The position numbers were made by a program, and so were the translations under genes. The notes beneath the pieces were generated by a model. It had not been told where the DNA came from, did not search any database, and was given only the letters and a program-made list of their open reading frames with translations. From Escherichia phage JK1, in the sequence record MZ436830.1: 64,000 nucleotides of DNA. One strand, 5' to 3'. Shown one piece after another: positions 2,429 through 55,568 of this stretch (position 1 is the first letter of the stretch; each line of letters begins with the position of its first letter).

Positions 2429-2458
2429 ATTATACCACATCCTTGTGGTAAAGTAAAC
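2429..2458 (-). promoter_or_regulatory. early promoter (GTTTAC-N18-TGGTATAAT)
   Basis: -35 at 2458..2453, extended -10 at 2434..2429. Confidence 0.6.
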
Positions 2459-4278
2459 TACTGGCTCATCCATTCTTTACGAAGGTCAGCGTTATCTCCC
2501 ATGAGCATTTCAAAAAGCTCTTTCCAGTTCTCAGGAAGTTTAACAACATCATATACTGGGTTTTGAATCATCTCACGATATTCAGATTTTTCCAAAGAGC
2601 CAAGTCCCTTAATATAACGGATGCTATGTTTAGGTAGAGCATCTTTGGCACTCTCATATTCAGCGACTGTATAAAACCATTCTTGTTTTTTACCGACCTG
2701 AGCGATGATTACAGGAGTTTTGACGAAGCGAATTCGTCCTTGCTCAAACAATTCTGGCCAATTACTAAAAAACCCGAGCAGAGAAGGATAAATGCTTCCT
2801 AGACCATCATGGTCAGCATCGGTCATAATAGCAATATTATGATAATTCAAGTTTTCAGCTTTTTCACCAAGAACTAATCCAGTGATTGCGCAAATATCAA
2901 ACAGTTCTTTGTTTTTAAGCATATCAGCATATGACATACCCCAACTGTTGAGAACTTTACCACGCAATGGATAACCACCATGAAGTTCTTTATCACGAAC
3001 ATCAATAAGATATCCGATAGCAGAATCACCCTCAGTCAAGAAAAGAGTAGTATCAGCATCTTTACCACAAAGATTCGCTTTGATATGTTTATGAACCTTA
3101 GCTTTAGAAGCCTTTTTAGCTGCTTTAGTTTCTGCTGCTTTTTCTGCTGCCAATTTACGGGCCAAGGCAGCTTCAATAATCGGCATTAAAATTGCTTCAT
3201 TATTTAGAATAGCGCGTGAAATCTTTTTAGCATCAAGTTGAATATGACTACGAATTTCACCAAAAGGAGAAGTAAGTCGTTCTTTAGTTTGAGAATCAAA
3301 TCGCATGTTTTTCATATCACGGACAAACATAACGATAGTCAAACATTCTTTAACGCGTGCTTTAGTTACATCAATTTTGAACTTACGTTTGATTTGTGGA
3401 ATAAGGTCTTCACAAATATCATCCATAACACAGTCAATGTGATGGCCACCATTCTTAGTGTGAATGTTATTCACATAAGTTAATTGGCGAAATCCATCCG
3501 GTGAACGACCAACCGCAATAGAACAATTTTCTTGTTCTTGAACAATAGCATGTTCATCATACTGTCGTGCATATTTCTTAAAATTGCCCTGAACCTTTTT
3601 ACCATTAAAGGTAAATTGAATATCAGGATAAACAACAGCAAGTGTCTGGAGACGATCTAGTGTAATGTCAAGATAAACTTGGGACAGCTCATTAGTTTCA
3701 AATGACATAAAATCAGGAATGAAAGTAACACGGGTTCCTTTCCATTTTCCTGGAATAGTTTCCCATGATTTATTTTCCATGCCATTTGAACAACGAACTA
3801 CAATATTATTTTGACCATCGCCAGTTTCACCGACAAACATCACAGAAAAAATGTTAGTTAAACTAGAACCAACACCATTCATACCACCGGTGACACGTTC
3901 TTTATCATCACCGAAGTTACCACCCGCTTTTGGAATAGTCCAAGCAGCAACTGGACCAGGAATTTCTTCACCGGTAGGTGTTTTAACCATCGCTTGTGGA
4001 ATACCGCGACCGTTATCTTCAACTGTTACCTGATTATTTTTAATGGTAACATTAATTTTATTCGCGAATTTAAACTTAGTACGAATACCTTCATCGACTG
4101 AGTTATCGATAATTTCATCAATAAGCTTAACAAGACCAGGTACATACTGAACACTTTCCCATTTACCAAACAGAAAGCGCTCATGCATTTCATTAGCAGA
4201 AGAGCCAATATACATGCCGCTACGCTTTTTGATATGTTCAATATCGCTCAGAATTTTAATTTCATTCTTAATCATCAC
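2458..4278 (-). CDS. 39: DNA topoisomerase II large (GyrB-like ATPase) subunit, uninterrupted 606-aa form
   Basis: N-terminal GHKL ATPase motifs (VEDNGRGIP) and TOPRIM-like C-terminal part in one ORF. Confidence 0.9.
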   Translation of the reverse strand: MMIKNEIKILSDIEHIKKRSGMYIGSSANEMHERFLFGKWESVQYVPGLVKLIDEIIDNSVDEGIRTKFKFANKINVTIKNNQVTVEDNGRGIPQAMVKTPTGEEIPGPVAAWTIPKAGGNFGDDKERVTGGMNGVGSSLTNIFSVMFVGETGDGQNNIVVRCSNGMENKSWETIPGKWKGTRVTFIPDFMSFETNELSQVYLDITLDRLQTLAVVYPDIQFTFNGKKVQGNFKKYARQYDEHAIVQEQENCSIAVGRSPDGFRQLTYVNNIHTKNGGHHIDCVMDDICEDLIPQIKRKFKIDVTKARVKECLTIVMFVRDMKNMRFDSQTKERLTSPFGEIRSHIQLDAKKISRAILNNEAILMPIIEAALARKLAAEKAAETKAAKKASKAKVHKHIKANLCGKDADTTLFLTEGDSAIGYLIDVRDKELHGGYPLRGKVLNSWGMSYADMLKNKELFDICAITGLVLGEKAENLNYHNIAIMTDADHDGLGSIYPSLLGFFSNWPELFEQGRIRFVKTPVIIAQVGKKQEWFYTVAEYESAKDALPKHSIRYIKGLGSLEKSEYREMIQNPVYDVVKLPENWKELFEMLMGDNADLRKEWMSQ

Positions 4279-5812: not shown

Positions 5813-6082
5813 TTAATTGAACAGTGGAGCGATGCGTTTCAGAAGAGTAGCAGCACCTTTGGCAAATTTTACATCATGAAAAACAGTTTCTTCTTCTGTA
5901 ACAACTCGAACTTTAATATTTTCACAATCCCAATTTTTACGAACAATCTTCAAAAGCTGCAGTAAATCTTTACATTCAGCAATATCGATAACACATCCAC
6001 GAGAATCTTCCATTATCGCACGATAACCGTAAGCCATACCATAATCGTTAAAAGATTGCTCGATGATAATTAAGTTTTCCAT
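5813..6082 (-). CDS. hypothetical protein
   Basis: ATG preceded by GGAG; track start is an upstream TTG extension. Confidence 0.5.
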   Translation of the reverse strand: MENLIIIEQSFNDYGMAYGYRAIMEDSRGCVIDIAECKDLLQLLKIVRKNWDCENIKVRVVTEEETVFHDVKFAKGAATLLKRIAPLFN

Positions 6083-6160
6083 TTTATTCTCCAAGTTGTT
6101 TTCTGTATCAGTAGTTGATATTGATATAGTACCATAATCAACTACTGATGTATATAGTTT
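6083..6160 (-). repeat. promoter/5'-UTR cassette, copy A (contains 13-bp perfect inverted repeat)
   Basis: shares ttttattctccaa...gtatcagtagttgata..tatagtacca with 25292-25380 and 51712-51790. Confidence 0.6.
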
Positions 6161-6181
6161 TATGAAAAAAAAATTTAAACT

Positions 6182-6717: not shown

Positions 6718-6747
6718 ATTATACTCTGGTCCCAAGAGTTTGTAAAC
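6718..6747 (-). promoter_or_regulatory. early promoter
   Basis: GTTTAC-N18-TATAAT. Confidence 0.5.
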
Positions 6748-7250
6748 TAGCTTACACGAACATTAATCACTGCGCTACGAGGAACTACGGAGTACTCTCC
6801 AGCATGAACTACATTAAGAAGTTCAACGCCATCTTCAATCCACTGGTCAGTTACCCAACCGCCGACCGGATTCGCGAATGGACGACGAATGTAAACTGCC
6901 TTACACAACAAATCAGTCGGGTCTTCAATTTTTTCAACTGGTGCCACATACATAGAAACTAAATCCATATCAATATGGGATTTTTCCTCTTCTTCTTTTT
7001 CAATTTCTGTCAATAGACTAAAATCTTTTTCATAAATAATAAGCGATGACACCATTCCATAATAGTTTCTAATTTCAATATACATCATGCCGATAAGAAT
7101 TCCGCTATTAACACTAATAACAGTAAAAGGATATCCGCCAGTTAAAGCAAGAAGTTCACAAAACTTATTATGAGATGTATTAGACAGTACCGGAAAATTC
7201 TTAATTTCATCAAATTTTTTCAATTGATAAACAGCATTATTTTTAATCAT
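6747..7250 (-). CDS. hypothetical protein, paralogue of 6182-6673
   Basis: 167-aa ORF; C-terminal VTDQWIEDGV segment. Confidence 0.5.
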   Translation of the reverse strand: MIKNNAVYQLKKFDEIKNFPVLSNTSHNKFCELLALTGGYPFTVISVNSGILIGMMYIEIRNYYGMVSSLIIYEKDFSLLTEIEKEEEEKSHIDMDLVSMYVAPVEKIEDPTDLLCKAVYIRRPFANPVGGWVTDQWIEDGVELLNVVHAGEYSVVPRSAVINVRVS

Positions 7251-7260
7251 AATTTTCTCT

Positions 7261-7812
7261 TTAATCTAAGGTAATAAAGCCTTTTAATTCGGCATGCGAT
7301 TTGCGGAACATTACTTGATGTCCGCCAATGATAACTTGGTCATCTGGCACTTCATAAATCGCAATGTACATTCCACGTTCTTTTAAGTCTTCACGCTCTT
7401 CTCGAGTGAACCATCTCATCATATCATATTCGCTAGCGAAAGCAAAATGATATAATGCAATAAACCACAATGGAATATAATTTTCAATTCGTGAATAATC
7501 TTTATTCCATTTAGTTTTAATAACATCATTAGCATTTTCAACTAATAACTTATCATCGTGTGGAATAGGAATACTTTCATGGCTTTCATAATTATCGCTA
7601 TGATGATGAAATGACGATGAATTAATACCGCAAAATTTTAGCCAAGTTCGAGTTTTCATAGAATCAAATCCACGATAAGGAGTTGATTGAACGCATAACT
7701 CTTGCCTAATTTTGACTATACCACTATCATCATTTAATGCGCTAAACGATGATTCAACACGATAAATTTTCATTTTATTATCCTCAGTAGCTATGGTGTT
7801 ATAATACCACAA
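7261..7812 (-). CDS. hypothetical protein
   Basis: 183-aa ORF downstream of an early promoter. Confidence 0.5.
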   Translation of the reverse strand: MWYYNTIATEDNKMKIYRVESSFSALNDDSGIVKIRQELCVQSTPYRGFDSMKTRTWLKFCGINSSSFHHHSDNYESHESIPIPHDDKLLVENANDVIKTKWNKDYSRIENYIPLWFIALYHFAFASEYDMMRWFTREEREDLKERGMYIAIYEVPDDQVIIGGHQVMFRKSHAELKGFITLD

Positions 7813-15098: not shown

Positions 15099-15128
15099 AT
15101 TATACCATACTCATTTTGGAAAGTAAAC
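15099..15128 (-). promoter_or_regulatory. early promoter
   Basis: GTTTAC-N18-TGGTATAAT. Confidence 0.55.
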
Positions 15129-15138
15129 CATTTAAATG

Positions 15139-15161
15139 AAAAAGGACTCCCGAAGGAGTCC
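15139..15161 (-). terminator. rho-independent terminator after soc
   Basis: GGACUCC-UUCG-GGAGUCC followed by UUUUU. Confidence 0.6.
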
Positions 15162-16367: not shown

Positions 16368-16392
16368 ATTATACAATAAATATATAAAGCAA
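16368..16392 (-). promoter_or_regulatory. middle promoter for gene 56 (MotA box TGCTTTA + TATAAT)
   Basis: TGCTTTA, 11-nt spacer, TATAAT. Confidence 0.5.
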
Positions 16393-16404
16393 TAAGGAGG
16401 ACAT

Positions 16405-17632: not shown

Positions 17633-17797
17633 TTACTCTTCTTTTTCTTTAGATTCCTCTTTTTTCTTTTTAGGAATCTGTTCAGGACCTTTATTTACTA
17701 CAGCACCTGACGTTGTTCCAGTAGAGATATTTTCAGGATTACCACCTGAATCTCCAGCGACCATATCTTCTTTAATAAATTCTTTATATGTTTTCAT
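17633..17797 (-). CDS. small protein with CTS-like N-terminus MKTYKEFI
   Basis: 54-codon ORF below track cutoff; TAAtATG coupling with upstream gene. Confidence 0.35.
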   Translation of the reverse strand: MKTYKEFIKEDMVAGDSGGNPENISTGTTSGAVVNKGPEQIPKKKKEESKEKEE

Positions 17798-17842
17798 ATT
17801 AACCTCTATTCATAAAAGCATTAAAAATTTGGTCATCAATAG
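17795..17842 (-). repeat. 48-bp direct repeat spanning a gene junction (copy 1)
   Basis: 45/48 identical to 18153-18200. Confidence 0.6.
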
Positions 17843-18155
17843 ATGGCGCAGTAATATTTTCTGCATCATTTAGCAAATCATTAATTTCATCAGATAGCAT
17901 AACACATGTACCTTTATTTCCTGTAATTGTTACTGCACAATTACGAACGTTTTCTTTATCAAATTTTAGGTTAATATTTTCGTAGTGAAAATCCTTTAAT
18001 GCCGAATATATCTTTAAAATGAAATTGTCTTTTACTACAATAAACCCAACCTCACTATTAAAACGCGGTTCATGGAAACTGTAATAAACCTTTTCATCTA
18101 TAAAATCGTATGAAATTTTTTCCATTTTTAAATATGAAAATTCAGAACTATACAT
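17799..18155 (-). CDS. hypothetical protein (C-terminal IDDQIFNAFMNRG tail)
   Basis: 118-aa ORF. Confidence 0.5.
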   Translation of the reverse strand: MYSSEFSYLKMEKISYDFIDEKVYYSFHEPRFNSEVGFIVVKDNFILKIYSALKDFHYENINLKFDKENVRNCAVTITGNKGTCVMLSDEINDLLNDAENITAPSIDDQIFNAFMNRG

Positions 18156-18200
18156 ATTAACCTTTATTCATAAAAGCATTAAAAATTTGATCGTCAATAG
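18153..18200 (-). repeat. 48-bp direct repeat spanning a gene junction (copy 2)
   Basis: 45/48 identical to 17795-17842. Confidence 0.6.
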
Positions 18201-18789
18201 AAACTTTTACTTTAGGCTGTTCTTCAAACGGTAATTCATATCCACATATTACAATTTTGTGATCGATACCAAAATACACAGAAGCAATATTATTAATATT
18301 ATTTTCAGTGAAATCTAAATCAACATCAATATCTTTTTGACTAACGCTCAAAGGATAATTAATACGAATAATTCGATTATCTTTAACAAAGATTCCACCG
18401 ACATACTCTGTGCTGCGTTTAAAGTTTACACGTTTCCTAAATGAAAAATATTCAGGTTCTTTATGGGCTCGACTCATAGGGCTTAAAGTGTATTCCGAAT
18501 ATGAAATATCAAATCCTACACCTTCAATATGAGCCAAAGTATCATGATTAAACCAATTATAATCGTATGCCAAATCCATTAAATTGTAATATGTGAAAGG
18601 CACCGGATTAACATCATATGTTGTACCTTTAAAATCTGCCCAGGCAACGATTTCGTTATCTTTAACAATTACAAAAATTGTGCCAATAAGATATCCACGG
18701 TTATTTTCATCAGGTGTTATATTATAACATTGTGCATCAGGAAATTTACCGTATTTAAACGGTGGATTTTTGTGCATATAATAAATCAT
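18157..18789 (-). CDS. hypothetical protein (C-terminal IDDQIFNAFMNKG tail)
   Basis: 210-aa ORF. Confidence 0.5.
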   Translation of the reverse strand: MIYYMHKNPPFKYGKFPDAQCYNITPDENNRGYLIGTIFVIVKDNEIVAWADFKGTTYDVNPVPFTYYNLMDLAYDYNWFNHDTLAHIEGVGFDISYSEYTLSPMSRAHKEPEYFSFRKRVNFKRSTEYVGGIFVKDNRIIRINYPLSVSQKDIDVDLDFTENNINNIASVYFGIDHKIVICGYELPFEEQPKVKVSIDDQIFNAFMNKG

Positions 18790-19586: not shown

Positions 19587-19615
19587 AACAATCTCCTCAT
19601 TTAACCAACAAGACT

Positions 19616-19645
19616 ACTATACCATAGTCTCGTCAGCTTGTAAAC
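19616..19645 (-). promoter_or_regulatory. early promoter upstream of dmd
   Basis: GTTTAC-N18-TGGTATAGT. Confidence 0.55.
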
Positions 19646-25054: not shown

Positions 25055-25291
25055 TCAAATGCAAGTAGTAATTACTCCAGTAGTGCTTATGCAGGTATTA
25101 CCCATTTGCACACCTAAAGATCCATTTGTATTCACATGAAGATTATCATCAATTTTAACTGATATTTTACCATTAGTGTGAATAACGGTGCTAGATTCAA
25201 TCACAGGTTGAGTATCATTTTCAACACTAACAAATGGAACTGCTGCTAATGCAACTAAACAAACTGCTAAGCATCCCATAACAATTTTCAT
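25055..25291 (-). CDS. small secreted protein
   Basis: signal peptide; ATG with GGAG SD (track start is TTG extension). Confidence 0.5.
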   Translation of the reverse strand: MKIVMGCLAVCLVALAAVPFVSVENDTQPVIESSTVIHTNGKISVKIDDNLHVNTNGSLGVQMGNTCISTTGVITTCI

Positions 25292-25380
25292 TTTATTCTC
25301 CAAATCTGTATCAGTAGTTGATAGTTGTATAGTACCATGGAAGAACAGTCTTGTAAACAGTTTTGTGAAAATTTTTTAGG
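25292..25380 (-). repeat. promoter/5'-UTR cassette, copy B
   Basis: near-identical to copy C apart from a 14-bp variable core; includes GTTTAC and TACTAT. Confidence 0.6.
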
Positions 25381-25440
25381 GAATTCTAAAGGTCCAGAAT
25401 CATCTGTTTTTCATAAGTATAGATTTATATTACTTGTATG

Positions 25441-25461
25441 AAAAAGGGACCCGGAGGTCCC
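25441..25461 (-). terminator. rho-independent terminator after gene 43
   Basis: GGGACC-UCCG-GGUCCC followed by UUUUU. Confidence 0.55.
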
Positions 25462-25474
25462 TAGATTTATTCTA

Positions 25475-29433: not shown

Positions 29434-30408
29434 TCACTTCCACTGCATTTCGCATGCTAATTGAATGAAAAGATAAGCTAAATGCAATTCAGTATTAGCT
29501 GCAATACCATGATACTGATTATTTTCGCCGACAATTTCGTACATACGAATAATACTCTGTGGAGTTACACGTGAATAGATTTCTTCGGCAAGTTTACCTA
29601 CGAACCACGAATAATCAGCTGCATATTTTGGTGCTAAAGCTCTGAGTTGTTTAACATCTTTATTTTTGAGAGACTCAAGAACATCATCAATAGCACCACG
29701 ATCGTTAGTAACCAGTGATAAAATACCAGCATCCAAAACACCTTTAGATGAATAACTATCGAGCTCGCCAATAGTTTTACGAAAATCAGGAAAATTCTTT
29801 TTAACCAAAGCTGCTACAACTTTCATATCAGCTATAGCAATTCCTTCATGCTTACAGATTTCGGTCAACCGACGAATCATCTGCTTCATCATTTCAATTT
29901 TATCTTCATCGGTCGGTTGACCGAATGTGATAACTCGACAGCGTGACTGAAGCGGTTTAATAATACCATCAATATTGTTAGCAGTAATAATAATACTGCA
30001 GTTTGAACTATAAGCTTCCATAAAGGAACGAAGATGTCGCTGAGATTCTGCTAAACCTGAACGGTCAAATTCATCAATAACAATTACCTTTTGACGACCA
30101 TCAAATGAAGCTGCACTCGCAAAATTAGTTAAAGGACCACGAACGAAATCAATTTTACAGTCTGATCCATTTACAAACATCATATCAGCATTTACATCAT
30201 GACACAATGCTTTTGCTACAGTTGTTTTACCTGTTCCTGGAGAAGGAGAATGAAGAATAATATGTGGAATCTTACCTTTACTTGTAATAGATTTAAAGGT
30301 TTCTTTATCAAAGGCGGGAAGAATACATTCATCGATAGTAGATGGACGATATTTCTGTTCAAGAATGTGTTCTTTTTCATTTACGGTAATCATAATTTCC
30401 TCATTCAA
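29434..30408 (-). CDS. 44: clamp loader large subunit (AAA+)
   Basis: Walker A SPGTGKTT, Walker B VIVIDEFD. Confidence 0.9.
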
Positions 30409-35153: not shown

Positions 35154-36354
35154 ATTTTGTAATAATGTCAAACTGTTCTTTAAAGCAGAAGCTTGAATCT
35201 TGATGCTGATACAAAAATTCATAAGCTTTTTCGCGTTCGCGGTCATAAAGAGTTCGGTCAGATGACAGTTCTTTAATACGTTCAAATGTTGATTCCATGT
35301 CATTTTCATCAAACCAAATGATACCGCTATCATGCGAGGTCAAAGGAGTATTATCAACACGGAATTTTAAATTTTCGCCAGTAGATTTCCAAAATACCGG
35401 AATTGTTCCACATGCACCAAGCTCGAGATGAGTATATTCTAAAGAACGTTGTAGATATTTTTTATCCAACTTACTCAACTGATAACCAAAACCGGATTTA
35501 CTCATACGTTCAAGCATTTCGCTATTTACATAACGGTCAAGAATTTGCGTTGGCAAATTAGGAGCAATTTTAATTTGGTCTACTTGATGAAGACGATAAT
35601 ACTCGTATGGAATTCCTTTTTCTTTAATAGGAATGAACGCTGGAGAACGTTCCAGACCTTCCATAATAGTACTTAGTCCTGCAGGTTTAAGATGTTTTTC
35701 ATGAAAATCAAACATCTGATAAAAACCTTTCCATGTAGTCGTACGACCAATCCAACGGTTGATATTCATGTTAATTTCAGAAACATCTTTCCAGTAGGTT
35801 GACCGAACCTTCGCAATATCCATAGGAGGCTGAAAGTTATATACTGTCGGTGCTTCTTCAATATCATCAAACAGAGAAACTGTTTCAGGATACCATTCTT
35901 TCATCAGAACTTTATTAAAATCACCATTATCAGAATGGCTAAAAATAACATCAGCTCGACGAACAGTTTCTTCTAATCCCAAATTTCGGCGCAAAGAAAG
36001 AGAAGAATGGTCATGTTGATAAACTACAACACGAACAGAAGGTTTAATGTTATCAATAATTTTTTTATAGTTATTAATAGTGTCTTCTTCAACCGAAGTA
36101 GCAGGAACTGAATTGATAATTAGAATATCACAATCATTTACCAGCTTAAGTGTTTTATCATATTCTTTTGCCAATAAAACCGGAATTGAAAATGATTTAT
36201 AATCATGCGCGCAATTACGAGTAAATGATTTATCTTTAGCATAAACCAAAGTTACTTCATGACCATTCTTAATAAACCAATCACGTTGCTCAAGAGAAAA
36301 TTTAGTTACACCACAACCTTCAAGACCTCGAGCCATAAAAATACATACTTTCAT
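35152..36354 (-). CDS. agt: DNA alpha-glucosyltransferase
   Basis: 400 aa, recognised sequence. Confidence 0.9.
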   Translation of the reverse strand: MKVCIFMARGLEGCGVTKFSLEQRDWFIKNGHEVTLVYAKDKSFTRNCAHDYKSFSIPVLLAKEYDKTLKLVNDCDILIINSVPATSVEEDTINNYKKIIDNIKPSVRVVVYQHDHSSLSLRRNLGLEETVRRADVIFSHSDNGDFNKVLMKEWYPETVSLFDDIEEAPTVYNFQPPMDIAKVRSTYWKDVSEINMNINRWIGRTTTWKGFYQMFDFHEKHLKPAGLSTIMEGLERSPAFIPIKEKGIPYEYYRLHQVDQIKIAPNLPTQILDRYVNSEMLERMSKSGFGYQLSKLDKKYLQRSLEYTHLELGACGTIPVFWKSTGENLKFRVDNTPLTSHDSGIIWFDENDMESTFERIKELSSDRTLYDREREKAYEFLYQHQDSSFCFKEQFDIITK

Positions 36355-36403
36355 TTAATATCCTCTTTGTTTTGGTTTATTTTACCAAAAATTTATAAAG
36401 CAA

Positions 36404-39423: not shown

Positions 39424-39629
39424 GGAGTTTAATTTCCTTAGCAACTGAACTAAATGCAGCACGATCGCAAATCATGCGTTTATGTAACTTGAGTATAATA
39501 TAGCAAACTTCAAAACTATTTACATGAGTAACGCGAACAGCATTACCATTAATAAGATAATACTGTCCCTTTTTAATTTCTTTATCAATCATAACCATAT
39601 CAATTCCTCAAAGGCAATTCATATGTTAA

Positions 39630-39658
39630 TAATACCACGGTTTGAACTTGTTGTAAAC
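39630..39658 (-). promoter_or_regulatory. early promoter
   Basis: GTTTAC-N17-TGGTATTAT. Confidence 0.45.
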
Positions 39659-39738
39659 AACTTTGTGAAAAATATTTTAGGGAATGATAAGAAAGGAACG
39701 ATAGCTTAGAATGGTAATATACAGAATGTGAGAAAGAA

Positions 39739-39751
39739 AGGCCCAGAGGGC
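39739..39751 (-). terminator. GC-rich hairpin after nrdH
   Basis: 5-bp GC stem with 3-nt loop followed by U-rich tract. Confidence 0.35.
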
Positions 39752-39756
39752 CCGTC

Positions 39757-40395: not shown

Positions 40396-40866
40396 TTAAT
40401 CATGTTTCCACACCCCATCGGTATTTGACCAAAGTCGCTGATTATCTGATCCTCGCCACAGCTTTTTAGTCGGAAGATTTTTCTCATACTTCCCATCAAT
40501 AATAACATCAACATATTTAAGCATTTCTAGTTGTTTAATATCTTCAAACTTATATCCTGTCCACAACCAAATGCTTTTATTGGGATAAAGATTTTTTACT
40601 GTTTGAACCACAGAGTGAATCACGTCTCTGTTATCAGGATAAAGAGGGTCACCTCCGGTTATAGTTAATCCTTCTATATAATCATTATTCAAACATTCAA
40701 TCAATTGTTCTAGTGTTTCACCAGTAAATGGAATACCATTTCTAGCATTCCATGTTGATTTATTATAACACCCTTCGCATTTATGCAAACAACCTGTAAC
40801 GAAAAGAACGACCCTGCAACCAGGGCCATTAACAAAATCGCAAGGATAAAATCTATCATAATTCAT
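40396..40866 (-). CDS. nrdG: anaerobic ribonucleotide reductase activating protein (radical SAM)
   Basis: 156 aa; CLHKCEGCYN cluster motif. Confidence 0.85.
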   Translation of the reverse strand: MNYDRFYPCDFVNGPGCRVVLFVTGCLHKCEGCYNKSTWNARNGIPFTGETLEQLIECLNNDYIEGLTITGGDPLYPDNRDVIHSVVQTVKNLYPNKSIWLWTGYKFEDIKQLEMLKYVDVIIDGKYEKNLPTKKLWRGSDNQRLWSNTDGVWKHD

Positions 40867-42680
40867 TGGTGTTTAACCCTATGCATGATTTCTTTATTTT
40901 TACCGAGATTAAATCCGCGTTCGTTTGGATTTCCCAAATAACCACATGTTCTTCTTATGGTGTTCATCTTTTTAGGATCAGTTTCTCCACAAATAGAACA
41001 AACAAATCCGTTTTCAGTAGGAGTCATTTCATGGGTACTTCCACATGTAAAACATTTATCTACTGGCATATTAACACCAAAATAATCTAAATGTTGTGCA
41101 GCATAATCCCATACGGCCTCAAGACCTTTCAAGTTATTTTTCATATCAGGAAGTTCAACATAAGAAATGTGACCACCTGTCGCAATGAAATGATATGGCG
41201 CTTCACGAGAAATCTTTTCAAACGGAGTAATATTTTCTTCTACTGAAACGTGGAAACTGTTAGTGTACCAGCCTTTATCGGTAACATCTTTTACACTTCC
41301 ATATTTTTCTGTATCAAGTTTACAGAAGCGATAACAAAGGTTTTCAGCAGGAGTCGAATATAAACTAAAAGCAAATCCAGTTCTTTCAGTCCACTGTTTA
41401 AGATGAGCATTCATTTTAGTTAAAATTTCTTGTCCAATATCACGACCGACAAGAATATTCAATTCGTGAATACCAATGTATCCTAGGGACACTGAACTTC
41501 TACCGTTTTTAAATAACTCAATTATGTCGTCATCAGGTTTAAGACGAACCCCGAATGCACCTTCTTGGTAAAGAATAGGAGCAACAGTAGCTTTAACTCC
41601 TTTTAAGGAACTAATTCTACACATCAATGCTTCAAAACACAGATCCATTCGTTCATTGAACAATTCAACAAATTTCTGTTCATTGAATTGTGTTCCAATA
41701 TAAGAATCTAACGCGATGCGAGGAAGATTCAATGTTACAACACCAAGATTATTACGTCCATCAAGAATTTCATTACCGGTCGAATCTTTCCATACGCTCA
41801 AGAAACTACGGCATCCCATCGGAGAAACAGGAACAGATGAACCAGTGATAGCTTTATTGTTCTTAGCCGAAATGATGTCAGGATACATTCTTTTGCTTGC
41901 GCACTCTAAAGCAAGCTGCTTAATATCATAGTTCGGGTCGTCTTTATAAAGATTAACACCTTCTTCAACGAACATAACAAGCTTAGGGAAAATAGGAGTT
42001 ATCCCATCACGACCAAGACCTTTAATACGATTTTTCAGAATTGCTTTCTGAATCATTCGTTCAGTCCAGTCAGTTCCCGTACCAAATGTAATTGTTACAA
42101 AAGGCGTTTGTCCGTTTGAACTAAAGAGAGTATTTACTTCATATTCATAAGCTTGGAATGCATCGTATACGTCTTTTTCTGTTTTAGATTGAGCATAATT
42201 CAATGCATCAGCGATTTGCCATTTTTCTGCATCCTCAATATGTTTTGCATAGGTGCGTTTAACATAAGGAGAAAGTACTTTATCTACATTAGCAAAAGTC
42301 GTTCCGCCGTATTGGTGAGAAGCAACCTGTGCAGTAATTTGTGCCATAATTGCAGTAGCAACACCGATTGATTTAGGAGTTTCAATCTGTGCATTACCAA
42401 GCTTAAATCCGTTCTCAAGCATTCCTTTTAAATCTACTAAACAGCAATTAGTAAATGGAAGAGCAGGGGAATAATCAATATCATGGAAATGGATAATTCC
42501 GCTTTCATGAGCTTTCATAATAAAAGACGGGACCATATTTTTGGCAATGTGTTTAGACACAATACCAGCCATAAGGTCCCGTTGAGTTGGAAAAACACGA
42601 GAATCTTTATTAGCATTCTCGTTTAAAAGGTCTTTATTAGTTTTATGAATCAATCCTTCAATTTCTTTTTCAATTGTCAT
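40863..42680 (-). CDS. nrdD: anaerobic ribonucleotide reductase, uninterrupted
   Basis: 605 aa; C-terminal Zn ribbon CFTCG...CSICG and glycyl radical region. Confidence 0.9.
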   Translation of the reverse strand: MTIEKEIEGLIHKTNKDLLNENANKDSRVFPTQRDLMAGIVSKHIAKNMVPSFIMKAHESGIIHFHDIDYSPALPFTNCCLVDLKGMLENGFKLGNAQIETPKSIGVATAIMAQITAQVASHQYGGTTFANVDKVLSPYVKRTYAKHIEDAEKWQIADALNYAQSKTEKDVYDAFQAYEYEVNTLFSSNGQTPFVTITFGTGTDWTERMIQKAILKNRIKGLGRDGITPIFPKLVMFVEEGVNLYKDDPNYDIKQLALECASKRMYPDIISAKNNKAITGSSVPVSPMGCRSFLSVWKDSTGNEILDGRNNLGVVTLNLPRIALDSYIGTQFNEQKFVELFNERMDLCFEALMCRISSLKGVKATVAPILYQEGAFGVRLKPDDDIIELFKNGRSSVSLGYIGIHELNILVGRDIGQEILTKMNAHLKQWTERTGFAFSLYSTPAENLCYRFCKLDTEKYGSVKDVTDKGWYTNSFHVSVEENITPFEKISREAPYHFIATGGHISYVELPDMKNNLKGLEAVWDYAAQHLDYFGVNMPVDKCFTCGSTHEMTPTENGFVCSICGETDPKKMNTIRRTCGYLGNPNERGFNLGKNKEIMHRVKHQ

Positions 42681-47331: not shown

Positions 47332-47361
47332 ATTATACCACATCCTTGTGGCAAAGTAAAC
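47332..47361 (-). promoter_or_regulatory. early promoter, near-identical copy of the 2429-2458 promoter
   Basis: GTTTAC-N18-TGGTATAAT. Confidence 0.55.
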
Positions 47362-48383
47362 TAGTTCAGTGCATTTAGTGCATTGTTCAGTTTAGAACGT
47401 TGCTTCGTGAGATTTTTGACTTTTTCTTGAGCTTTTTCTAGCATCTTTTCAGCTTCTAACACTTCATTAGTTGCTTTAACGAGTTCATCATCTACTGCCT
47501 TGATAGACTTCTCAATCGCATGTGCATGCCATTTTTCAACAGGTTTAAGACTCGGATTTTCAATAGGAAGAAAATTCACTTTATTGAATTTCCATGCATC
47601 CTTATTACCTGAACTATACATCCAAAATTTAGGATCGTTTGATAAGTAATTAGATAAATTTAAGTTATCTTGCACTTCTTGCTTTTTCTCTTGCGTAACT
47701 TCGTCCTTTCTCAAAAAATCGTATTTAAATGAAACGATCATATCAAGTTCATATGTTGTTGTGTCTAATTTAAATCGTTCGAAATGCTGTGAAATCTTAG
47801 ACTGAACTGCAGCAACAACATCCATATACTTAAATGCTTCTGTCAACTGCGATTTAAGGCATTCGCAAATTGAAAGAGAATTTTTTGTATTAGGTTTAAA
47901 GCTAATTCGTGCAGTTCTATTATTTTCTTTTAATGGTCTTACTTCCATCTGAAGAGTATAACCATCAAATTTCAGGTTCTTTAAGTTAATGTCAGAACCT
48001 TTTAATCGACTAGCCGTCGACAAAATTTGCTTTAATTGTTTACGGAATAGAGCAATAAATCTCCATTCAATACGATAATGATTTGGATTGAAAAATCCAG
48101 ATGATAAATCAACCTTACTCTGACCAACACCTTGAACAAATAGAGGATTTTTATAATCAATAGTTTTACAGAAATCGGTGAGCTGCTCACGAGCAGTCAT
48201 TTGTGTAATATACCCCGCTTTACTAAAATGACGTAACCATTCACTGCTATTCAGATGTTTAAAGGCGTGAATGGAACAATTAACTTTACCAAGGTCTAAA
48301 TTATTTTCGCACAAAAATGTCATAGCATCACGAGTATAGCTGGCATTACGAACCATATCTTCAATTTGAGAACGAGTTTTCAT
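47361..48383 (-). CDS. hypothetical protein with C-terminal coiled coil (family member 3)
   Basis: 340-aa ORF. Confidence 0.5.
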   Translation of the reverse strand: MKTRSQIEDMVRNASYTRDAMTFLCENNLDLGKVNCSIHAFKHLNSSEWLRHFSKAGYITQMTAREQLTDFCKTIDYKNPLFVQGVGQSKVDLSSGFFNPNHYRIEWRFIALFRKQLKQILSTASRLKGSDINLKNLKFDGYTLQMEVRPLKENNRTARISFKPNTKNSLSICECLKSQLTEAFKYMDVVAAVQSKISQHFERFKLDTTTYELDMIVSFKYDFLRKDEVTQEKKQEVQDNLNLSNYLSNDPKFWMYSSGNKDAWKFNKVNFLPIENPSLKPVEKWHAHAIEKSIKAVDDELVKATNEVLEAEKMLEKAQEKVKNLTKQRSKLNNALNALN

Positions 48384-49750: not shown

Positions 49751-50278
49751 TTATGCGAGTACCGTCTTTAACCGTTCTTCAAACTTCCGAAGAGTATTTT
49801 GGCGTTCAGCTCTTTGCTTTTTGTAAGTTTCAATACGCTCTGAAATGAGAGTGTATCGTTCATTTACTGATTCTTTCATAAAATCAGGAATTTCACGAGA
49901 AGCTTTAATCTCGTCAAATTTATCAATAACAGCTTGCTCTTCAGCAATTAAGTTATCATACATCAAAATATCTTTCTTGATGAACTCAATATCTTCTTGA
50001 GTTACGCGAGATAATTTAGATGCTTTATCCTTTTTGTACTGTTCGTTAGTATCACGAGACCAGTGTAATGTACGATTTTTATTCGTATTCTTATAAATTT
50101 CTACAATACCAATCTCATCAATAATAACGATCCAATTCCAACGGGATTTGTAAATTTGTCCTCCATCAACTGTGATTTCACCTCCGATTGAGATGTCATT
50201 AAAGAACTTGCTTTGTGCTTCAGATTTAAATTTACCATCGTTGTAATTTACCAAGTTGAAAATATCTTTAGCGTTCAT
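49751..50278 (-). CDS. hypothetical protein
   Basis: 175-aa ORF. Confidence 0.5.
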   Translation of the reverse strand: MNAKDIFNLVNYNDGKFKSEAQSKFFNDISIGGEITVDGGQIYKSRWNWIVIIDEIGIVEIYKNTNKNRTLHWSRDTNEQYKKDKASKLSRVTQEDIEFIKKDILMYDNLIAEEQAVIDKFDEIKASREIPDFMKESVNERYTLISERIETYKKQRAERQNTLRKFEERLKTVLA

Positions 50279-50338
50279 TTTCTGTTCCTCCGTAGTTGAT
50301 AGTTGTATAATACCACAGAGGAACAGTCTTGTAAACCA

Positions 50339-50641
50339 CTAAAAGAAACTTCTTTCACAATTTTTTCCACTGAACCAAGCGCTCACTGCTTTCTTAGTCT
50401 CAGGAGCAGTGTTATCCATAAACCATTCAAAGGCAGCCTTTTTATGATTCTGGAGGGCTTCTCGGGCTTTAATCTGTTCACGGTCTATTAACACTAACAT
50501 ATGAGCCTTTCTTGTCACCAAGGGCTTCTTATGATTTTTTGAATACTCCCAATCATTTGTCCATCGCATCGTTGTTGCGAACTGAAATACTGCTTCTTTA
50601 ATTTTAGTTTCGTAAATTTCACGAGCCTTTGAGTATAACAT
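50339..50641 (-). CDS. hypothetical protein
   Basis: start trimmed to ATG with GGAGG SD. Confidence 0.45.
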   Translation of the reverse strand: MLYSKAREIYETKIKEAVFQFATTMRWTNDWEYSKNHKKPLVTRKAHMLVLIDREQIKAREALQNHKKAAFEWFMDNTAPETKKAVSAWFSGKNCERSFF

Positions 50642-50742: not shown

Positions 50743-51711
50743 TTATTTCAGAAGAGTAACCTCAGCGATTTCTTCCCAACCGTTTTTGTCGGTCATAATA
50801 AAGTCAGCAAGATAAAGAGCAGTACGCAGTGAAACATTACGTAAACGATTAACATTGACTTTCATCCATGATAATGCTTTATAAGTTTCTTCATCAGAAA
50901 GACCGCGCTTTTGCATCATGTCAGTTGAAAGAATAACATCTTCAACCCTGACCATAATTTCTTCATTAGTGTGAACACCCAAATCCAAATAAACTGAGCG
51001 GGACACTAATGCTTGTAAATGTGGAGCAAGTTTAGTACCACGGTCTAATTCGCGGTCAATGTCAACGTTTGTGATAAAAACAATCGTTCCTTTAAATTCA
51101 AACTCACGCTCAATGCCTTTTTCTTCTAAGTAAGAAGATGCAGTGCTCCAGCAGACTTTACGGGTCTCTCCAGTGTCCAGAGCAGCTTTTAGAAGATTAA
51201 GAATGTCCATATCAGAGAAAACATCCACATCATCAATCAAAAGGACAGAATTCTCTTCACGATTATTCCAAAGCTGTTCATAAAGACCGATACCGGAGAT
51301 TTTACCGTTAATGCTTTTATATTCAATGTATCCAATATCATTTGCTTTATTTAAAGCTTTATCTAAAGAATACGTTTTACCAATACCTGCCGCACCAGAG
51401 ATAATTAATGAACGAATGTTTCCGTTAATAATACCATTCGTCATCATTCCCATAACATTAAATCTTTTATTAATGCGGGTTTTCATATCTTCATACGATT
51501 CTTTAACTTCTTCAACTTTTACACCATCATATGAAATGTCTGATTTGTAAACCCAAACACCGCGACGTTTACCGTCAATTTCAACAAAAACTTTACCATC
51601 TCCTTGTGCATCTACCGGAGCATTATCTGGGAACCATTCGCCTAAGAGCTCAAAAGTTCCAGAGATTTCTTTACCGAAGTAGATACCCTTATTGATAGTT
51701 ACAGTTTTCAT
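50743..51711 (-). CDS. AAA+/P-loop ATPase
   Basis: Walker A GAAGIGKTYS, Walker B VLLIDDVD. Confidence 0.6.
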   Translation of the reverse strand: MKTVTINKGIYFGKEISGTFELLGEWFPDNAPVDAQGDGKVFVEIDGKRRGVWVYKSDISYDGVKVEEVKESYEDMKTRINKRFNVMGMMTNGIINGNIRSLIISGAAGIGKTYSLDKALNKANDIGYIEYKSINGKISGIGLYEQLWNNREENSVLLIDDVDVFSDMDILNLLKAALDTGETRKVCWSTASSYLEEKGIEREFEFKGTIVFITNVDIDRELDRGTKLAPHLQALVSRSVYLDLGVHTNEEIMVRVEDVILSTDMMQKRGLSDEETYKALSWMKVNVNRLRNVSLRTALYLADFIMTDKNGWEEIAEVTLLK

Positions 51712-51790
51712 TTTATTCTCCAAATCCGTATCAGTTGATAGTTGTATAGTACCATAAAGCTTTATGCTTGTAAACAGTTTTGTGAAAAAT
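51712..51790 (-). repeat. promoter/5'-UTR cassette, copy C
   Basis: near-identical to copy B. Confidence 0.6.
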
Positions 51791-51799
51791 TTTTGAAAT

Positions 51800-51823
51800 A
51801 AAAAAGGGAGCCCGAAGGCTCCC
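51800..51823 (-). terminator. rho-independent terminator between NTase-like gene and ATPase gene
   Basis: GGGAGCC-UUCG-GGCUCCC followed by UUUUUU. Confidence 0.55.
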
Positions 51824-51825
51824 TA

Positions 51826-54557: not shown

Positions 54558-54689
54558 TACATACTCCTTTGAATCATATCAATAATATTGTTCACCAGAT
54601 TATAGGTAAACAAAGGATAATTATATTGAATCATCACATACACAACAAACAAAACTTTCATTCTCTTCTCCTTGGCAGTTGACAAGATT

Positions 54690-54719
54690 ACTATACCATA
54701 ACCTTGCCAACTTGTAAAC
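54690..54719 (-). promoter_or_regulatory. early promoter
   Basis: GTTTAC-N18-TGGTATAGT. Confidence 0.5.
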
Positions 54720-55285: not shown

Positions 55286-55518
55286 TATTCCACCACATAT
55301 GACAGAGAGAATATTGCACACGCCATGTGAGTTGCAACTTCATCACACATATTATAACGTTTCTTAAGAAATTCTACAAGTTCTTCACTAGTAACTTCAT
55401 CCATGTCGACGAAAAAATCACCATTAATGATGACGTAGATATTTCCTTCTTGATTGAGTGCTTCAATTTTCATGATGTTCTCCTCTTTATCCGATAGTTG
55501 TATAGTATCACAGCTCAA
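55285..55518 (-). CDS. small hypothetical protein
   Basis: 77-aa ORF. Confidence 0.4.
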
Positions 55519-55541
55519 ACGGAAAGTAAACCGGTAAAATG

Positions 55542-55563
55542 AAAAAAGTCTCCCGAAGGAGAC
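55542..55563 (-). terminator. rho-independent terminator after rI.-1
   Basis: GUCUCC-UUCG-GGAGAC followed by UUUUUU. Confidence 0.55.
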
Positions 55564-55568
55564 TAATG

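Follow-up and report, generated by a model that had tools for sequence, protein, structure and literature searches.

Probable PeSL-type early-promoter cassettes in front of unrelated genes in the first 64 kb of a T4-like phage genome

Six copies of a repeated promoter block, found in 64 kb of T4-like DNA, are very probably (about 85%) one subfamily of the PeSL-type (promoter-early stem-loop) early-promoter cassettes of T-even phages, as judged from their sequence. The phenomenon has already been published for this genus; the observation made in the first-pass annotation of this DNA and the reading given to it are essentially right, and the cassettes are not a new kind of element. Our analysis adds three refinements: (i) an exact RegB consensus in the three strong copies, (ii) predicted hairpins between spacer and leader, and (iii) reassortment of segments around a 21-nt core. 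Current understanding is unchanged, and published work is confirmed in another genome.

Six copies of the cassette and their anatomy

The DNA analysed, a continuous stretch of 64 kb referred to here as the window, is the first part of the genome of a Tequatrovirus, a close relative of T4. A 3-kb piece around the site originally reported (copy A below) is 97–98% identical to Tequatrovirus phages (vB_Eco_NR1, teqskov) and matches hundreds of T4-like records. The window begins with rIIA and follows the gene order of the T4 map; since nearly all of its genes are encoded on the minus strand, this is the strand on which the cassettes are read.

All six positions named in the first-pass annotation are correct. 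We recovered them by a pattern search with the two halves of the block quoted there, which matched at 6115/6149, 25318/25352, 51735/51769, 50296, 55491 and 39652 against a chance expectation of ~0.01–0.03 matches. A scoring profile built from cassette copies in other public contigs, outside the window, yielded 102, 82, 72, 45, 37 and 26 bits at the six sites, compared with ≤13.6 bits for the 13 other window promoters that have a GTTTAC-N18-TAnnnT skeleton. In an unbiased repeat search, the largest dispersed direct-repeat family of the window is D1, with 6 copies of 67 nt at 6108, 19095, 25311, 39611, 50289 and 51728; the SD/ATG part of the block was returned separately as D5, with 3 copies at 6072, 25281 and 51701. 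The copies and the terminators preceding two of them are as follows.

Copy A (reported site), 6080..6181, minus strand: between the motB stop and an 89-aa ORF (5813-6082); profile 45 bits; A/T tract, degenerate -35 ATATAC at 6155-6150, TGG at 6134-6132, -10 TACTAT at 6131-6126, leader, GGAGAATAAAA at 6092-6082, ATG at 6082-6080
Copy B, 25289..25384, minus strand: before a 78-aa ORF (25055-25291); profile 102 bits; UP-like tract at 25384-25359, -35 GTTTAC at 25358-25353, core TGGTACTATACAACTATCAAC at 25337-25317, -10 at 25334-25329, leader, GGAGAATAAAA at 25301-25291, ATG at 25291-25289
Intrinsic terminator hairpin upstream of copy B, 25445..25462, minus strand: AGGGACCTCCGGGTCCCT followed by a T-run, after gene 43
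Copy C, 51709..51804, minus strand: before nrdC.10 (ORF 50743-51711); profile 82 bits; T-run/UP tract at 51804-51776, -35 at 51775-51770, core at 51754-51734, -10 at 51751-51746, GGAGAATAAAA at 51721-51711, ATG at 51711-51709
Intrinsic terminator hairpin upstream of copy C, 51805..51824, minus strand: AGGGAGCCTTCGGGCTCCCT followed by a T-run, after nrdC.11; -16.4 kcal/mol, z=-4.3
Copy D, 50276..50360, minus strand: before nrdC.8 (ORF 49751-50278); profile 72 bits; -35 at 50336-50331, -10 TATTAT at 50312-50307, shortened leader
Copy E (partial), 55471..55564, minus strand: before a mobD.5-like ORF; profile 37 bits; terminator at 55564-55547, -35 at 55531-55526, -10 TACTAT at 55507-55502 followed by ACAACTATC, ATG at 55473
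Copy F (partial), 39596..39753, minus strand: before a 55.6-like ORF; profile 26 bits; terminator at 39753-39739, shared TTTTCACAAAGTTGTTTACAA with the -35 at 39658-39653, -10 TATTAT at 39634-39629, leader unrelated to the family, ATG at 39598

Copies C and D are direct repeats 1.44 kb apart. Read 5' to 3' on the minus strand, a full copy consists of a GC-rich hairpin with a T-run, an A/T tract ending in TTTTCACAAAACT, the hexamer GTTTAC, a locus-specific spacer, the invariant core TGGTACTATACAACTATCAAC (TGn and the -10 TACTAT), the leader T(ACT)GATACRGATTT and finally GGAGAATAAAATGAAAA with the SD and start codon. The first-pass annotation had described an almost identical block with GTTTAC, TACTAT and a GGAG SD in each copy, a description that needs some correction. 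Copies B and C (25291 and 51711) are indeed nearly identical, except for the 15 nt separating -35 from -10; this spacer is unrelated between the two, and the shared block is thus not contiguous. Of the three strong copies, copy A has diverged furthest, and copies D, E and F are partial mosaics; among the copies listed as diverged, those at 55531 (E) and 39658 (F) carry just part of the block. Five of the six copies have GTTTAC, an 18-nt gap, TGn, TAYTAT and an A/T-rich tract upstream, whereas copy A, the very one originally reported, has ATATAC and keeps TGgTACTAT. The -10 reads TATTAT in the copies at 50336 and 39658 and TACTAT elsewhere. An SD lies 6–9 nt 5' of the ATG in all six copies, as GAGGA in the 39658 copy and otherwise as GGAG. 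By sequence architecture (UP/-35/TGn/-10), the copies qualify as predicted T4 early promoters (Pe).

Intrinsic terminator hairpins lie 16–87 nt upstream of copies B, C, E and F, with the distance amounting to 81–87 nt for B and F; copies A and D have a hairpin across the -10 rather than an upstream terminator. Each of the six downstream ORFs falls into a PHROG family of its own, none with a known function, which bears out the statement that the genes are unrelated. Pfam returned nothing for five of these ORFs, and nrdC.10 has just sub-threshold matches to AAA/STAND NTPase models.

We aligned 19 early-promoter regions locally with one another in all combinations, a comparison for which no prior model is needed. 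The pair 25358/51775 scored 59.5, 6155/25358 scored 37.5 and 25358/50336 scored 35.5, against 29.5 for the top non-family promoter pair and a mean of 8.0 (sd 1.2) for shuffled sequences. The strong copies thus outscore non-family promoters, and the notion that the copies are no more similar than unrelated early promoters, which the first-pass annotation had put forward as the finding that would speak against it, is refuted for them. It still applies to the copies at 55531 and 39658, whose similarity to the family is no greater than that between some other promoter pairs. The nearest match of the 55531 promoter is the promoter at 15128, and the terminator/-35 half of copy E matches that promoter instead of the family (repeat family D12).

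Several other stretches of the window are shared in the same piecemeal way. The promoter pair 2429-2460 / 47332-47363 is near-identical (97% over 32 nt, including a hairpin, CCACAAGGATGTGG, between -35 and -10); 15118-15158 / 55521-55561 agree to 88% over terminator plus -35 block, and 19608-19645 / 54682-54719 to 84% across spacer and -10. Near-identical promoter pairs therefore exist outside the family, and patchwise sharing is general among the early promoters of this genome, beyond the family reported. rIIA and the gene occupying the gene 44 position are likewise similar in their translation-initiation regions and first codons, with 83% identity over 46 nt (2156-2201 / 30360-30405; …AATGAGGAAATTATGATTA…).

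From the sequence and published T4 biology we infer the functional steps of transcription, cleavage and recombination set out here and below. The upstream GC hairpin with its T-run would end transcription from the previous gene, and host sigma-70 RNA polymerase would bind the UP-like tract, the GTTTAC -35 and the extended -10 (TGgTAYTAT). Transcription would start ~7 nt downstream of the -10 and produce an unstructured leader of ~30 nt. When the transcribed leaders of copies A–D were folded, no structure was predicted (z near 0), so a structured regulatory leader RNA was rejected for these copies; a search of the whole window with Rfam covariance models gave no match at the gathering threshold.

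Predicted RegB sites and hairpins enclosing the -10

Strong intergenic cleavage sites of RegB/S1 follow the consensus GG*AGRAYARAA (Durand et al. 2006, via PMC3014915), and T4 RegB inactivates early mRNAs by cleavage within such SD sequences (PMC3014915). The motif GGAGRAYARAA occurs in the 64-kb window with 3 exact matches vs 0.37 expected. All three are the SD regions (GGAGAATAAAA) of copies A, B and C, at 6092-6082, 25301-25291 and 51721-51711, and copies D, E and F deviate from the consensus. A RegB-sized ORF is encoded in the window at the syntenic place. With an exact consensus and unstructured leaders, the SDs of copies A–C are predicted strong RegB/S1 sites, which would account for the conservation of the cassette at its 3' end; as in the published context, GGAGAATAAAA is an SD in an unstructured, intergenic early leader, here as a candidate site. 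The ORF downstream of a strong copy would be expressed right after infection and then be turned off by RegB cutting in the SD, so that a burst followed by RegB switch-off is to be expected for the genes behind these copies. This predicted expression, immediate-early and then shut off, helps to guess the roles of the ORFs 5813-6082 and 25055-25291.

Two copies contain long inverted repeats around the -10.

Copy A inverted repeat, 6107..6149, minus strand: 13 bp; -20.2 kcal/mol, z=-4.7
Copy D hairpin, 50282-50326, minus strand: 15 bp; -30.2 kcal/mol, z=-7.0

In copy A, the spacer segment ATCAGTAGTTGAT (6149-6137) is the reverse complement of the leader segment ATCAACTACTGAT (6119-6107), and the -10 is enclosed between them; the hairpin has no T-run after it and is therefore not an intrinsic terminator. 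In copy D, CTGTTCCTCTGTGGT (50326-50312, spacer and TGn) pairs with ACTACGGAGGAACAG (50296-50282), which includes the SD as GGAGG, and this hairpin is largely conserved in T4. Both arms of either hairpin would be present just in RNA that reads through from upstream; for nrdC.8, the SD would be masked in such read-through RNA and free in RNA begun at the cassette promoter.

The T4 genes e, soc, 49 and I-TevI provide a precedent, in that a promoter inside a hairpin controls their translation (PMC3014915). Likewise, copy D has its SD in the 3' arm of a stable helix, with the predicted promoter start between the two arms, so that long upstream transcripts would be translationally silent and promoter-proximal ones active. 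The internal promoters known from these genes are late (or middle) and delay expression, whereas the promoter of copy D is early and would confine nrdC.8 expression to the immediate-early period. With its start site placed by prediction, copy D fits the promoter-within-hairpin layout, to which the other copies are not assigned.

Relation to published cassettes

PeSLs were defined in RB49/phi1 by Arbiol 2010 (PMC2839356), with promoter and terminator activity as well as mini-circles shown experimentally, and were extended to T4/PST by Comeau, Arbiol & Krisch 2014 (PMC4122927). The latter report gives the consensus TTTACW-N17-TAYWAT and places stem-loops just upstream. Measured against the portion of it considered, the window cassettes belong to the same genus, their GTTTAC-N18, counted from the G, equals TTTACW-N17-TAYWAT, and they share the A/T upstream tract, the stem-loop, the 3' SD with start codon and the position beside ORFs that differ between relatives; no essential difference from the T4/PST PeSLs emerges from it, and beyond it go a subfamily with a common 21-nt core and leader, the exact RegB consensus of three copies and the spacer–leader hairpins. 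The likeness to mobile promoter–stem-loop cassettes proposed in the first-pass annotation is supported, since promoter anatomy, stem-loops and, at three of the six loci, ORF breakpoints agree with the PeSLs of PMC2839356 and PMC4122927.

The RB49/phi1 elements are likewise early promoter and stem-loop composites in many copies, mostly before ORFans and at indel or replacement breakpoints (PMC2839356). Their subclasses with a stem-loop between -35 and -10 or over the -10 resemble copies A and D, and gene 43 is flanked by PeSLs there as well (PMC2839356). They differ in having a near-perfect TTGACA/TATAAT promoter and GGGG...CCCC stems (PMC2839356), and in that promoter and terminator activity, here predicted from sequence, and mini-circles are experimental there. 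Arbiol 2010 (PMC2839356) calls the T-even versions analogues, not homologues.

The features by which PeSLs are recognised are present in the window: a sigma-70 early promoter with an A/T-rich upstream region, a stem-loop, and a 3' SD with start codon. An association with breakpoints is clear for 3 of the 6 loci; two loci are invariant in ~500 genomes and the enrichment is marginal. Two further points weigh against the assignment as PeSL-type cassettes, namely that copy A has no -35 match and that the terminators of copies B and F, at 81–87 nt upstream, are far away for parts of one cassette. An earlier study, by Repoila et al. in 1994, reportedly described a conserved early-promoter repeat 5' of many unrelated small ORFs and proposed it as a recombination patch for ORF shuffling. 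That work concerned the two internal-protein (IP) loci only, in contrast to the window copies at motB/cef, imm.1/43, 55.6, nrdC and mobD.5; Arbiol 2010 (PMC2839356) credits it with the same idea for T-even IP loci.

As PeSL-type cassettes, the copies would allow T-even phages to gain, lose and swap small accessory genes with the neighbouring transcription units undisturbed, each accessory gene bringing its own terminator, promoter and ribosome-binding site. An outside possibility is that the cassette is more than a passive homology patch and forms a portable pulse-expression module selected as a unit. Its parts would be a strong early promoter, the invariant 21-nt core and initial transcribed sequence as the target of some factor, and a perfect RegB site; in certain copies the spacer would have evolved pairing with the leader, restricting translation to transcripts begun in the cassette itself. 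Such a module would spread among loci and phages, possibly via mini-circles as in RB49/phi1.

Signs of exchange among copies, and breakpoints in relatives

In T4-like contigs from IMG/VR and metagenomes, the exact 20-nt core precedes at least 10 unrelated ORF clusters, including motA. This cargo count of 10 is a lower bound, as the IMG/VR and metagenome scans gave few T4-like contigs (21 and 27 loci). A set of 57 copies from 10 loci shows no variation in the 21-nt core, with both flanks variable; because these copies were picked by exact core match, the invariance is partly circular. When flanks outside the cassette were compared between loci, no match was found. Another genome (L024) carries a complete nrdC.8-type cassette, hairpin included, before a different ORF, with 95.5% identity over 67 nt to 50274-50340. 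The imm.1 locus by itself shows three spacer types joined to three leader types, one of the combinations having the nrdC.8-type spacer without its partner arm. Copy B of the window looks like such a chimera, with an nrdC.8-like spacer, an nrdC.10-like leader and no hairpin (z=+0.7). Given this spacer/leader reassortment and the diversity of cargo around it, the core behaves, on the sequence evidence, as a crossover point.

The same invariance could mark the core and initial transcribed sequence TGGTACTATACAACTATCAAC as a regulon signal, bound by a phage or host protein or an RNA factor that would co-regulate motA, imm.1, nrdC.8, nrdC.10 and small ORFs. We regard this as distinctly unlikely, and it could coexist with a role as recombination patch. 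It draws on the 57 copies with their constant core and variable flanks, and on the report that, for no recognised sequence reason, the response to Alt-modified polymerase differs for some T4 early promoters (PMC2988021). Apart from the circularity of the sample, copies A, D, E and F of the window vary within the core, the leader has neither a predicted structure nor an Rfam match, and the T4 reviews (PMC2988021, PMC3014915) describe no such factor.

The copies lie in the same orientation and have identical tracts of 20–40 bp in common (the T-run/UP/-35 segment and the 21-nt core); as PeSL-type cassettes, they would act as homology patches through these tracts. For recombination, T4 probably requires <50 bp of homology. 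Recombination between patches would insert, delete and swap ORFs and would reassort spacer and leader segments; a dedicated recombinase is not implied. Because identical tracts of 20–40 bp are natural crossover and deletion points, they also constitute a warning for phage engineering.

T4 has cassettes identical in kind at the four loci compared, so the family is old, and the sequence of copy A is identical in T4. The synteny comparison suggested in the first-pass annotation was carried out against T2, ACG-C40, phiD1 and T4: ORF insertions, deletions and replacements have their breakpoints inside or at the edge of the cassette at three of the six loci. In the nrdC.11|nrdC.10 spacer, T2, ACG-C40 and phiD1 contain 1–3 extra ORFs bounded by cassette repeats. 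In T2, a ModB-like ORF stands between two copies of TTTTTATTTCAAAAATTTTTCACAAA..GTTTAC that are preceded by different terminators, and the segment duplicated around this extra ORF is the copy C tract 51804-51770. The arrangement in the window and T4 is the exact product of a single crossover in the T2 tract, consisting of terminator 1, the shared tract and the downstream spacer and core. In ACG-C40 this place holds three extra ORFs with three promoters, and in phiD1 a different 66-aa ORF; in both insertions, similarity to the window stops right after TAYTATACAACTATCAA.

At imm.1|43, 317 of 517 matching records contain the 78-aa ORF of copy B at full length. T4 is without it and has the cassette joined straight to imm.1 at the 8-nt ATGAAAAT common to both ORFs; in T2 the ORF is replaced by a divergent one, and homology returns inside the leader. 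At cef|motB, 259 of 507 records have an intact 89-aa ORF behind copy A; in T4 this ORF is a remnant, reduced by an internal deletion that starts directly after ATGGAAAA. The loci of copies E (55531) and F (39658) are structurally stable in ~500 genomes. Several breakpoints use 8-bp microhomology (ATGAAAAT, TGGTACTA) and not cassette-to-cassette homology.

Convergence alone, in which strong T4 early promoters and translation initiation regions are pushed to one optimum with no shared ancestry, exchange or shuffling role, is highly unlikely as an account of these data and already largely refuted. T4 early promoters do carry a consensus beyond -35 and -10 (PMC2988021), the two best copies have unrelated sequences in the spacer, where constraint is lowest, and the overall breakpoint enrichment is weak, all of which convergence would accommodate. 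It fails to account for the gap in profile score between the six copies (26–102 bits) and the 13 other promoters with the same skeleton, for identity running through a leader of ~30 nt that has no known sequence requirement, for whole cassettes including the spacer that recur at unrelated loci such as L024, for the spacer and leader types reassorted at one locus, and for T2 and window arrangements exactly one crossover apart within a shared tract. Strong selection on promoter and translation-initiation function could nevertheless maintain part of the similarity.

We determined how often breakpoints coincide with cassettes. Relative to T4, the window has 21 indels or replacements, 4 of which touch any of the 19 early-promoter cassettes, and many of the remaining ones are homing-endonuclease genes; relative to T2, 6 of 13 indels touch an early-promoter cassette. 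Counted per gene start, breakpoints hit 4/18 starts with a promoter and 26/106 without for T4 (p=0.68), 6/18 and 14/106 for T2 (p=0.043), and 7/18 and 29/106 for the union (p=0.23). There is thus no clear excess at promoter-bearing gene starts against T4, a marginal one against T2 and no significant one in the union, in a test that is rough because the gene starts come from a crude ORF call. The proposal that the cassettes could drive modular gene shuffling holds in so far as breakpoints fall at three of the six, but "drive" is too strong a word. Change by way of the cassettes does occur but is of minor weight, as Comeau 2014 (PMC4122927) also concluded in terming the contribution of PeSLs "nontrivial".

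Automatic prophage finders flag any direct repeat, and T-even phages are strictly lytic. The 'attL' misc_feature at 6093-6112 on the cassette leader of the T2 record (AP018813.1) and the 'attL' feature under the imm.1|43 match in the T6 record are almost certainly prophage-finder artefacts triggered by the dispersed repeat. That the repeats are attachment sites targeted by a site-specific recombinase has a practically negligible probability: Arbiol 2010 (PMC2839356) left a dedicated helper protein open, but the junctions are scattered (in the T-run/-35 tract, after the core, at the ATG), unlike those of a site-specific enzyme.

Two deletions at early promoters were considered as cassette recombination and rejected. 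In phage Shinka (MZ502379.1, 1500-1520; window 55508 / 51040), a deletion of ~4.5 kb removes mobD.5 through nrdC.11 and part of nrdC.10; it is not a cassette-to-cassette crossover, as TGGTACTA in the -10 of copy E is joined to a chance TGGTACTA inside nrdC.10. T2 is without motB.1 and most of motB.2 (window 6748-7732 vs T2 6739-6742), one end of the deletion exactly abutting the -35 GTTTAC of the motB promoter and the other lying 40 nt into motB.2; recombination between the two early promoters was rejected for it because there is no shared tract at the junction.

Further differences from T4 lie elsewhere in the window. A 49-nt direct repeat (17795-17843 / 18153-18201, 94% identical, 358 nt apart) flanks the ORF 17799-18155, which is absent from T4 at this place; the indel is bounded by a repeat of the gene-start region, not by a promoter cassette. 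T4 segments of ~0.6–1.0 kb at the positions of the nrdD intron/I-TevII, dam, mobB and mobC are absent from the window (positions 42142-42145; 16373-16394; 36345-36370; 40846-40866). At 2458-4278, a single uninterrupted ORF of 606 aa occupies the place of T4 genes 39 and 60, between which T4 carries mobA and 60.1.
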